Positions 48,747 to 50,534 of a DNA stretch of 64,000 nt are shown piece by piece. A model generated the notes under the pieces. The model was not told the origin of the DNA and did no database searches. It worked only from the letters and a program-made list of their open reading frames with translations. Within the stretch, counting starts at the first letter, position 1. Each line of letters begins with the position of its first letter. The stretch comes from Planctomycetota bacterium (GTDB lineage Bacteria; Planctomycetota; UBA8108): NCBI GenBank assembly GCA_965659285.1, contig CBFHWB010000001.1:1797-65796 (forward strand), written 5' to 3'. The translations under genes were made by a program, and so were the position numbers.

Positions 48747-50326
48747 GCCGGCTCCTCCGTCTCACTTTCCCCGAACGCGTCTGAGCGCAGCTCCGCACGC
48801 CGGATGGCGTCATAGAGCGCCGAGGCCTTGTGGATGGTCTCAAAATACTCGCTCTCGGCGACCGAGTCGGCCACGATTCCGGCCCCAGCCTGTACCGTGG
48901 CGATTCCCTTGTGAATCTGCAGCGTACGAATCGCGATGCAGGTATCGAGATTGCCGGCAAAATCCAGGTAGCCTACGGCCCCGGCGTAGGTACCCCGCCG
49001 GGTCGGCTCCAACTCGTCGATGATCTCCATGGCCCGGATCTTGGGAGCCCCGGACACGGTGCCCGCGGGAAAACCCGCCCGGAAGGCGTCCACCGGACGC
49101 AGCCCCTCCCTGACCTCTCCCTCCACCTCGCTGACAATATGCATGACGTGGGAATAGCGTTCGACCTCTTCCAGCTTGGATACCCGGACGCTGCCGAACT
49201 CCGCCACGCGCCCCACATCGTTACGGCCGAGATCGACCAGCATCCTGTGCTCGGCAAGCTCCTTCTCATCTGCGAGCAATTCTCTCTCCAGGGCCAGGTC
49301 CTCAGCCTCGTCGGCGCCTCTCCGCCTGGTGCCGGCGATGGGGCGCACCAGGGCCCGGCCGTCCTCGCAGCGCACCATGATCTCCGGAGATGACCCCAGC
49401 AGGGCCGTGTCATTCCACTCGAGGTAGAACAGATACGGTGAAGGGTTCAGGGCTCTCAGGCAACGGTAGATCTCAAAGGCATCGACCTCGACCGGCTTCT
49501 GGAAACGCTGAGAGAGAACCACCTGGAAGATATCGCCGGCGAAGATATGCTCACGCGCAGTGCCCACCGCGGCCTCGAAGGCTTCCTTTGTGCAATTCGA
49601 CTCCATCCCGTCGACGATCGAGCTCTCCGGCAACTCGTCGAGCGGATGAAAGACGTCCTCTCCGGCGACCGGACGACTCAGAGATCTCTCCAACTCATCC
49701 AGTCGGCGCTGAGCATCTTTCCAGGCCGTTTCCCTCTCCTGCTCGGACTGGCCGGGGCTGACATGGGCGTTGGCGATGAGAAAGAGCCGGTGCTTGGCGT
49801 GGTCGAAGGCCACCAGCGTATCGTGGAAATGCAGCTGCGCATCCGGCAGTTCTGTCTCCCGCTCATGGGAGTCCGGGATCTCCTCGATATACCGAATCGT
49901 GTCGTAGCTCAGATAGCCCACGGCGCCACCGGTCAGCGGCGGCAAGCCGGCCACGGGGACGGTCACATAGGCCTCGATCGTCTCCTGCAGGATCTCGAAG
50001 AAGTCACCCGAAAGGTTTTCTTCCTCACCATCCCCTCTCCGCAAGGAGGTCGTCTCGCCGACCGCAGAAAGGGTCAGGAAGGGGTCTCCTCCCAGGAAGG
50101 AATAGCGCCCGATGCGCTCCCCTCCCTCGACACTCTCGAAGAGAAAGGAGGCTCCATCGTCCCGACGAAGGCGCAGAAAGGCAATAACCGGAGTCAGGGT
50201 GTCAGCCGACAGCTCCCGGTAGACCGGGACCAGAGTTCCCTGGTCGGCGTAGCTCTTGAAATCGGAATAGTTCACCGGACTCTCCAGCGGCGTCTGAACA
50301 AAAAAAAACCTTCCCACCGGGCTCAT
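48743..50326 (-). CDS. trpE: Anthranilate synthase component I. Probable true start is GTG at about 50275 (VNYSDFKSY), downstream of the attenuator
   Basis: LTPVIAFLRL, GAVGYLSYD, LMVDLGRNDVGRV motifs. GGAGAG RBS before the internal GTG. The track ATG at 50326 lies inside the attenuator hairpin. Confidence 0.9.
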   Translation of the reverse strand: MSPVGRFFFVQTPLESPVNYSDFKSYADQGTLVPVYRELSADTLTPVIAFLRLRRDDGASFLFESVEGGERIGRYSFLGGDPFLTLSAVGETTSLRRGDGEEENLSGDFFEILQETIEAYVTVPVAGLPPLTGGAVGYLSYDTIRYIEEIPDSHERETELPDAQLHFHDTLVAFDHAKHRLFLIANAHVSPGQSEQERETAWKDAQRRLDELERSLSRPVAGEDVFHPLDELPESSIVDGMESNCTKEAFEAAVGTAREHIFAGDIFQVVLSQRFQKPVEVDAFEIYRCLRALNPSPYLFYLEWNDTALLGSSPEIMVRCEDGRALVRPIAGTRRRGADEAEDLALERELLADEKELAEHRMLVDLGRNDVGRVAEFGSVRVSKLEEVERYSHVMHIVSEVEGEVREGLRPVDAFRAGFPAGTVSGAPKIRAMEIIDELEPTRRGTYAGAVGYLDFAGNLDTCIAIRTLQIHKGIATVQAGAGIVADSVAESEYFETIHKASALYDAIRRAELRSDAFGESETEEPA

Positions 50327-50340
50327 AATAGGTGGGAAGG
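50300..50340 (-). terminator. trp attenuator terminator hairpin with U9 tract
   Basis: On the minus strand: CCTTCCCACC-(12-nt loop)-GGTGGGAAGG followed by TTTTTTTTT, directly after the leader peptide. Confidence 0.55.
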
Positions 50341-50363
50341 GTGAGATTGTCTCTCCCTGATCC

Positions 50364-50438
50364 CTAGGGAATCCACCACAGCGCGCAAACCGCCTCCAGG
50401 GCGGGTTTTTCGCAATCTGAGAGACGCGGCGCGATCAT
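50364..50438 (-). promoter_or_regulatory. trpL: trp leader peptide ORF (trpL-like) with tandem Trp codons
   Basis: ATG with GAAGGA RBS encodes MIAPRLSDCEKPALEAVCALWWIP. TGG-TGG two codons before the TAG stop. Followed by alternative hairpins and the terminator. Confidence 0.6.
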
Positions 50439-50534
50439 GGCTGGTTTCCTTCGGGCGATAATGGTCGTTAGGGCAAATAGAAGTATAGGAGTCCCCATCG
50501 CCGCAAGTCAAGCAGGGCGGCAGGCCGGAAAACC

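Follow-up and report, generated by a model that had tools for sequence, protein, structure and literature searches.

A probable leader-peptide attenuator upstream of trpE in an uncultured marine Planctomycetota clade

Introduction

Does a planctomycete gauge its tryptophan supply through a ribosome translating a short leader peptide ahead of trpE? The question is raised by a 64-kb stretch of contig CBFHWB010000001.1 (assembly GCA_965659285.1, positions 1,797 to 65,796 of the forward strand; hereafter the window), which carries the tryptophan operon trpE-G-D-C-F on its minus strand. A preliminary description of the window, made from the sequence alone, had placed a Trp-sensing, ribosome-mediated attenuator with a complete leader-peptide grammar before trpE and judged this notable. 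Trp leader-peptide attenuators have been predicted or demonstrated in Corynebacterium, Streptomyces venezuelae and Sinorhizobium, the last as trpL (PMC1262725, PMC6614838), and Naville and Gautheret (2010, PMC2965389) described leader-peptide systems as unshown outside Proteobacteria and Actinobacteria before adding the his leaders of Firmicutes. In the literature that could be searched, we came across no account of such an attenuator for the trp genes of Planctomycetes. Vitreschak and colleagues reportedly predicted attenuators in Bacteroidetes/Chlorobi and Thermotogales as well, in 2004. The computational analysis described here, drawing on gene content, conservation and ribosome-masked folding, supports the proposed assignment in silico: the element is very probably a ribosome-mediated leader-peptide transcription attenuator coupling trpEGDCF expression to the supply of charged tRNA-Trp.

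The leader open reading frame and its terminator

Ahead of trpE the minus strand encodes a 24-codon open reading frame (ORF) with a GAAGGA ribosome-binding site and a TGG-TGG pair two codons before the stop, all exactly as first described (coordinates of this and all other features are collected in Table 1). The strong terminator reported to follow it is likewise present, a 10-bp hairpin of -17.6 kcal/mol with a T9 tract spanning 50340-50300, which a simple terminator scan had missed because the loop maximum of that scan was 8 nt. The leader frame opens further 5' at ATG 50498 (44 aa in the ORF listing), but this codon lies within the spacer of a sigma-70-type promoter and is not expected in the transcript, so that 50438 is taken as the leader start. 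This promoter, absent from the preliminary description, matches 10 of 12 consensus positions, and the 2-kb region around it holds two promoter-like sites against 0.2 expected in shuffles; transcription would start near 50475, about 37 nt 5' of the leader ATG.

The arrangement of tandem Trp codons, stop and terminator exceeds chance. A scan of both strands of the window required that TGGTGG have an in-frame stop at most 20 codons on and a hairpin with T-tract no more than 90 nt away, and a single match emerged, the leader directly 5' of trpE; in all, the window contains 48 TGGTGG hexamers and 22 sites resembling terminators. The same leader is found on five near-identical contigs (L081-L085), its ORF and terminator unchanged.

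The structure predicted to compete with the terminator is not the one originally put forward. CCGCCC/GGCGG stem-loops had been proposed as alternative structures downstream of the Trp codons; the stem does exist, but it sits inside the ORF, 5' of the Trp codons, has no overlap with the terminator, and is neither an alternative to nor a competitor of it. The predicted antiterminator instead pairs a G-rich strand that starts 2 nt into the stop codon (as DNA AGGGAUCAGGGAGA, 50364-50350) with UCUCACCCUUCCC (50346-50334), taking up seven of the ten nucleotides of the terminator 5' arm. Three of the related lineages considered below (L168, L170, L175) likewise have a hairpin 5' of the Trp codons, and one may speculate that the in-ORF hairpin, followed by UUUG, is an RNA-polymerase pause site synchronising ribosome and polymerase. 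On the plus strand, a terminator-like site at 50390-50404 (CCGCCTCCAGGGCGG plus GTTTTTCGCA) is the reverse complement of this hairpin, flanked by its A-run, and is most likely incidental, as no plus-strand gene ends there.

Folding as a function of ribosome position

Full-length folds are uninformative on a kinetic switch, and they were therefore replaced by folds of partial transcripts, comprising the RNA present just before the 3' arm of the terminator is made, minus the nucleotides covered by the ribosome. When the A site holds the first Trp codon, the antiterminator of the window forms at -15.5 kcal/mol and captures its seven nucleotides of the 5' arm; when it holds the stop codon, a 4-bp hairpin (-2.7 kcal/mol) is all that is left, no nucleotide is captured and the arm is free. 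The stalled-state antiterminator of the window holds if the leading edge of the ribosome is placed at +10 to +14 nt, and is weaker at +15 to +16. Over all lineages, the stalled antiterminator amounts to -11 to -24 kcal/mol and captures 4-10 nt of the terminator 5' arm, and at the stop -0.3 to -4.4 kcal/mol is left, the arm being unpaired at every leading edge from +10 to +16 nt. E. coli trpL, passed through the same script as a positive control (the control sequence is 100% identical in 5,422 genomes), showed its textbook behaviour, with -15.6 kcal/mol and five of six nucleotides captured in the stalled state, and -4.4 kcal/mol with none of the six captured at the stop.

The antiterminators themselves vary in sequence (GCUGG/CCAGC in L170, GGGGAAGGCGG/CUGCCCUCCCC in L171). 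Their outermost pair maps to stop +2 to +6 in the window, as it does in all but one of the seven related lineages with tandem Trp codons. As modelled, the 12 nt that separate the first Trp codon from the stop look like a ruler set to the front edge of the ribosome.

Folding of untranslated leaders points to a further property of the element. Here the antiterminator still folds in most lineages, with a mean pairing probability of 0.37-0.81 for the terminator 5' arm, and since no stable 1:2 structure is predicted, an untranslated leader would tend toward read-through rather than termination. Of the 1:2, 2:3 and 3:4 pairings suggested for checking at the outset, the antiterminator and the terminator are thus recovered by prediction and the 1:2 pairing is not; the folds predict a three-element switch with read-through when the leader is untranslated. 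In the untranslated window the Shine-Dalgarno/AUG region of the leader (CCCGAAGGAAACCAGCCAUG, 50425-50452) pairs with the Trp-codon/stop region (CUGUGGUGGAUUCCCUAGGG, 50362-50381, minus strand), and the Trp-codon region pairs upstream with its own Shine-Dalgarno/AUG region in L167, L169 and L170 as well. The analogous start-to-stop helix predicted in L170 has a different sequence (AUGCUUCUUACGG with CCUUCGUAAGAAGC). Such a helix might limit re-initiation at completed leaders, or be part of a pause structure.

The leader in related lineages

The close comparison covered 11 further lineages, on contigs chosen as graded relatives, whose TrpE is 63-90% identical to that of the window (Table 2). 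In seven of them (L167, L168, L169, L170, L171, L175, L176) a short ORF containing WW or WWW precedes a G+C-rich hairpin and a T7-T9 tract. The Trp codons are in frame throughout these seven, and six end W-W-x-x-stop, exactly two codons separating the Trp pair from the stop. Counted back from the stop, the first Trp codon is found at 12 nt (15 nt where there is WWW), and the T-tract follows the stop at 46-59 nt. Among the closest relatives, leader and trpE are conserved to about the same degree; outside the group formed by the window, L167 and L169, peptide identity is 12-52% even in a lenient alignment, and little is common beyond the Trp pair. The surrounding elements recur as well, the TTGACT and TATACT hexamers preceding the leader in L167-L172 and L176, and a CCCUCCC/GGGAGGG terminator core with varying loop-proximal pairs being found in L170, L171 and L176.

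Table 2. Leaders ahead of trpE in the related lineages (identity is to TrpE of the window)
Lineage	TrpE identity	Leader peptide	Terminator
L167	90%	MITPRLSDCEKPAQEAVCVLWWIP-stop (...VLWWIP-stop)	yes
L168	88%	MKNTPRRNAARIAPRPPARDGFACGPAGVIWWIP-stop; ancestral ATG now AGG, upstream in-frame ATG used	yes
L169	81%	MITPRLSDCENPALEAVCVLWWIP-stop (...VLWWIP-stop)	yes
L170	75%	MLLTVPTLLSIATRASHDVRAWWPS-stop	yes
L171	74%	MLSPLVPTTSLDLHRHASRSGRGVGSASLGYWWTS-stop (...GYWWTS-stop)	yes
L176	72%	MPSTSPANPVPENESERLQVRESLSVEAGWWWIS-stop (...AGWWWIS-stop)	yes
L172/L173	70%	single-Trp mini-ORF MARWHGS-stop only	yes
L174	70%	no leader	no
L177	68%	no leader	no
L175	67%	LNFVDSRRGRPAHDGWWYARARREV-stop (...DGWWYARARREV-stop)	yes
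L178	63%	no WW ORF	yes

Several observations weigh against an attenuator. Thermodynamic folds of the full-length leader prefer the terminator in nearly every constrained state, so that the switch must be kinetic, and an anti-antiterminator of the E. coli 1:2 type, sought in the folds of the window and its relatives, is not predicted in any. Formal covariation is thin, with one compensatory change (U-A to C-G, in the terminator) in the MAFFT/RNAalifold alignment of the relatives, a count held down by 1-nt indels in L170 and L176 that misalign the arms. When the spacer was shuffled by dinucleotides, support for the single antiterminators was modest (fractions of 0.013-0.17, and 0.60 for L172), because the shuffle keeps a purine-rich composition that itself favours pairing with the C-rich arm. 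The expectation that orthologous leaders would keep the Trp codons is borne out in the seven lineages named; the tandem codons are missing from L172/L173, where a single Trp is found, and from L174 and L177, which have no leader, and L178 has a terminator without a WW ORF. Finally, the Shine-Dalgarno sequence is weak or absent in several leaders (L171, L176). Given the modest statistics of single antiterminators and the limited covariation, the main weight of the argument lies in an architecture repeated across diverged leaders.

Other relatives depart from this architecture. L172 (1100-1180; L173 is identical) retains promoter, terminator and an antiterminator strand of the GGGAGAG type, its ORF has seven codons with one Trp, and this leader could be a degenerate or minimal version. 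In L178 (2497-3000) the leader extends over about 350 nt and includes a CCUCCC/GGGAGG terminator and T7 but no WW ORF, while L174 (2785-3000) and L177 (2773-3000) have neither leader ORF nor terminator. These differences indicate that trpE regulation turns over within the clade.

Proposed course of attenuation

Considering which sequence elements are present, how far they are conserved and how the predicted pairings exclude each other, we infer a switch in which ribosome stalling and termination would depend on Trp. Once transcription has begun about 37 nt 5' of the leader ATG, a ribosome would translate the 24-codon leader as RNA polymerase proceeds. With ample Trp-tRNA it would clear UGG UGG and reach the UAG two codons on, where its leading edge would mask the G-rich segment (50364-50350) that starts in the stop codon; the masked segment could not pair with the C-rich 5' arm, and the proposed consequence is that the hairpin with its U9 tract forms and transcription stops at about 50300, ahead of trpE. 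With Trp-tRNA scarce, the ribosome would wait at the first (or second) UGG, held in the A site, with its leading edge some 12 nt further upstream, the G-rich segment would be free to form the antiterminator with seven of the ten nucleotides of the 5' arm, and the polymerase would read on into trpE and its start at GTG 50275.

Alternative explanations

The hairpin and T-tract might have nothing to do with tryptophan, serving as the terminator of the 1886-aa UvrA-like gene or as a general insulator behind which the WW ORF arose by chance. Between the end of that gene (50535) and the trp promoter no obvious terminator belonging to it can be seen, and its read-through would meet the hairpin. However, the promoter sits between the two, and the hairpin adjoins trpE even where the upstream gene differs or diverges (L171, L175, L176), which means that it is not simply the terminator of the UvrA-like gene. 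Together with the in-frame WW kept at a fixed stop spacing in seven lineages whose peptides have otherwise diverged, and with the single occurrence of the WW-stop-terminator combination in the window, this makes such an origin extremely improbable. No more credible is a conservation of UGGUGG for RNA pairing instead of decoding, GGUGG being complementary to the CCACC with which the terminator 5' arm ends in the window and L167-L169; the two do pair in untranslated folds of L168 and L169. Yet L170 (CCAGCCG), L171 (CCCCG) and L176 (CCGACCG) lack CCACC and keep the in-frame UGGUGG at the same stop distance, and pairing therefore cannot explain the Trp codons.

A terminator controlled in trans, by uncharged tRNA acting on a T-box, a TRAP-like protein or a riboswitch ligand, would render the short ORF irrelevant. 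The trp operons of Firmicutes offer a precedent, being governed by T-box or TRAP with similar terminator/antiterminator logic. Switches between sensing systems have been described (PMC2965389), and the long leader of L178, with its terminator and no WW ORF, suggests that relatives may use another system. Against this, neither the T-box (RF00230) nor any other Rfam family matched the leader at E<=10, or the window and relatives at the gathering score, and the nine to eleven (G/U)AG triplets, 2-3 nt apart, that TRAP needs contrast with a longest chain of one triplet in the window leader and at most three in the relatives. Besides the terminator core, the diverged leaders have only one invariant element in common, UGGUGG in frame together with its spacing to the stop, just what a ribosome sensor predicts, and we regard control in trans as very unlikely. 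The leader might also act in trans itself, as rnTrpL and peTrpL do in Sinorhizobium meliloti (PMC6614838, PMC7298713), through the terminated RNA of about 175 nt or the 24-aa peptide. The conservation of the leader among the closest relatives, about equal to that of trpE, would suit such an additional role, but the data indicate no target, and the peptide sequence is not conserved beyond those relatives, so that we give it very little chance. Ribosome-mediated attenuation thus stays the preferred explanation of the element.

The start codon of trpE

The attenuator bears directly on the annotation of the gene behind it. As had been pointed out, the first ATG of the trpE frame falls in the terminator loop, and the codons for SPVGRFFFV come from the terminator 3' arm and the T-tract, 'GRFFF' being GGGAGG-T9 in translation. 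The proposal that the true start is GTG 50275 with its GGAGAG is now backed by an alignment of the N-termini of 48 homologues, nearly all of which begin at the residue matching this GTG; the MSPVGRFFFV... extension is seen only where a gene caller chose the loop ATG and is absent from most homologues. In L167 the frame from the equivalent loop ATG meets a stop, and on the near-identical contigs gene callers are divided between 527 aa and 510 aa. The aligned sequences indicate that the correct TrpE is the 510-aa form. Elsewhere, the annotated N-terminus of P0014, a TrpE relative of 69% identity, contains ...SRDGRFFFGETL and resembles a translated terminator with its T-tract; the same mis-call probably recurs in public annotations of the clade.

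Relation to known systems

The window leader resembles E. coli trpL in its short ORF with tandem UGG near the end (...GWWRTS-stop in E. coli, ...LWWIP-stop in the window, ...AWWPS-stop and ...YWWTS-stop in relatives), in the succession of stop, antiterminator strand and G+C-rich hairpin with U-tract directly 5' of trpE, in the distance from stop to U-tract (58 nt against 65 nt in E. coli), and in the outcome of the ribosome-masked folds. It differs in its terminator, of 10 bp with a 12-nt loop compared with 6 bp for E. coli in the same fold procedure, and in host and operon, a Planctomycetota metagenome-assembled genome (MAG) with trpEGDCF without trpBA. Whereas the untranslated E. coli leader forms a 1:2 hairpin that frees the terminator arm, that of the window keeps the antiterminator. 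Expressed in terms of the attenuator class, the locus has a translatable leader ORF between promoter and trpE, conserved Trp codons, a terminator and, in silico, a position-dependent antiterminator; it lacks a predicted 1:2 structure causing termination without translation, a feature of the E. coli archetype and not of every member.

By the Rfam model for these leaders (RF00513, Trp_leader) there is no sequence or structure homology between the window leader and E. coli trpL. Searches were run at a permissive E<=10 on the leader region and at the gathering score on the window and 10 loci, and the covariance-model search recommended in the preliminary description returned no relevant Rfam match: RF00513, which finds E. 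coli trpL at 93 bits as a control of the model, had none at E<=10 in 49800-50800 and none at its gathering score (41 bits) in the window or relatives. A weak match to Rfam P9 (18.9 bits) was rejected, being merely the in-ORF hairpin. The systems of Actinobacteria and Alphaproteobacteria are similar to the window in that trpE or trpE(G) is preceded by a leader of high G+C content containing Trp codons and a terminator/antiterminator pair, but they belong to other phyla and show no detectable sequence similarity to it, and trans functions are known for the Sinorhizobium leader.

How far the arrangement extends was surveyed across many phyla in trpE loci among the matches listed, with TrpE at most 55% identical. 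A W(x)W short ORF with a terminator was found in 24 of 168 such loci, and in none of the 14 other Planctomycetota trpE loci among the matches listed, two of which have less than 200 nt upstream. Trp-rich leader ORFs precede trpE in Balneolaceae (L002, L018, L045, L047, of the NWWWP type), in Syntrophales and similar bacteria (L037, L070, L071, L113, L121, with WWW or WWWW), in Binataceae and 'delta' MAGs (L039, L044, L049, L108, with WRW), and in L008 (Gemmatimonadaceae) and L089; example motifs in other phyla are NWWWP..., NRWWWW..., AGWWRWH... and RRWWWRFW. These leaders share the layout of the window element, most with a terminator and, in all but one case, a T-tract 50-58 nt after the stop, but their peptides and hairpins are unrelated and 8-14 codons follow the Trp codons compared with two in the window. 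The five tested against Rfam (L018, L037, L039, L064, L078) gave no match at the gathering score. The occurrence of Trp-rich leaders in several more phyla shows that the grammar is not confined to Proteobacteria and Actinobacteria, and the window element is a clade-specific instance of a widespread, well-understood mechanism.

Operon, neighbouring genes and host

The attenuated operon comprises trpE-G-D-C-F only, trpB and trpA lying outside it, and each reading frame overlaps the next by 4 nt (trpG to trpF occupy 45717..48746); the same gene order is found in relatives. Beyond trpF lies a convergent gene for ribosomal protein S21 (45365-45670, plus strand), followed in the L081 gene calls by murJ, an apolipoprotein N-acyltransferase gene and rpoN. 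On the other side, the 1886-aa upstream protein has duplicated UvrA-type domains (UvrA_inter twice, UvrA_DNA-bind, ABC_tran) and about twice the normal length of UvrA, and a long UvrA-like gene (1870-1916 aa) adjoins trpE in L167, L170, L174 and L178 too. Some 20 marine metagenome contigs encode the exact TrpD protein, as does MAG GCA_024959575.1, and members of the 90%-identity cluster of TrpE carry the NCBI names 'Planctomycetota bacterium' or 'Planctomycetes bacterium'; the host is an uncultured marine Planctomycetota MAG.

Table 1. Features of the trpE leader and its surroundings (window coordinates)
Feature	Position	Strand	Details
UvrA-like gene, upstream	50535-56195	minus	1886 aa; 3' end at 50535
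Sigma-70-type promoter, predicted	50482..50511	minus	TTGACT 50511-50506, 18-nt spacer, TATACT 50487-50482
Shine-Dalgarno-like GAAGGA of leader ORF	50447..50452	minus	8 nt 5' of ATG; kept in L167, L169
Leader ORF, trpL analogue	50364..50438	minus	ATG 50438-50436; MIAPRLSDCEKPALEAVCALWWIP; TAG 50366-50364; 24 codons
In-ORF hairpin CCGCC-CUGGA-GGCGG, then UUUG	50390..50404	minus	codons 12-17 of leader ORF; in minimum-free-energy folds
Putative regulatory codons UGG UGG (Trp22, Trp23)	50373..50378	minus	two codons 5' of stop
Predicted antiterminator	50334..50364	minus	GGGAUCAGGGAGA (50364-50350) with UCUCACCCUUCCC (50346-50334); -15.5 kcal/mol
Intrinsic terminator (attenuator), predicted	50300..50340	minus	10-bp G+C-rich hairpin + T9: CCTTCCCACC (50340-50331), 12-nt loop (50330-50319), GGTGGGAAGG (50318-50309), T9 (50308-50300); RNA arms CCUUCCCACC / GGUGGGAAGG, then U9; -17.6 kcal/mol
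Apparently spurious trpE start ATG	50324..50326	minus	in terminator loop; opens 527-aa ORF
trpE Shine-Dalgarno GGAGAG	50280..50285	minus	CTGGAGAG kept in L167-L169
trpE start GTG	50275-50273	minus	3' of T-tract, after GGAGAG
trpE (anthranilate synthase component I)	48743..50275	minus	510 aa from GTG; Pfam Anth_synt_I_N, Chorismate_bind
trpG	48746-48168	minus	Pfam GATase
trpD	48171-47146	minus	Pfam Glycos_transf_3
trpC	47149-46352	minus	Pfam IGPS
trpF	46355-45717	minus	Pfam PRAI

Significance

What is new here is the finding of an apparent E. coli-style tryptophan switch in a phylum for which no earlier report was found; as the mechanism is the textbook one, no principle is changed. The earlier view that a complete leader-peptide grammar would be notable in this host is upheld in that the known range extends to Planctomycetota, and loses some force through the Trp-rich leaders of other phyla. 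For annotation, the start of trpE is corrected, public calls on some near-identical contigs carrying a 527-aa form that begins in the terminator loop, and a regulatory small ORF is added that gene callers overlook. The conserved W-W-x-x-stop spacing, combined with an antiterminator that starts within or just past the stop codon (at 2-6 nt), provides a natural data set on footprint geometry in attenuator design.

A bolder reading, which we hold to be doubtful, is that the attenuator arose independently in this marine Planctomycetota clade as a three-element, default-ON switch without an anti-antiterminator, in which the ribosome at the stop would be the sole block to antitermination and a ruler of about 12 nt would be matched to its leading edge. 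If true, leader-peptide attenuation would be a solution that arises repeatedly across phyla, and not the trait of a few lineages. At the level of the organism, an uncultured marine Planctomycetota clade joins the groups that appear to sense charged tRNA-Trp via ribosome stalling, and sensing of this kind would also imply that transcription and translation are coupled on its leader.

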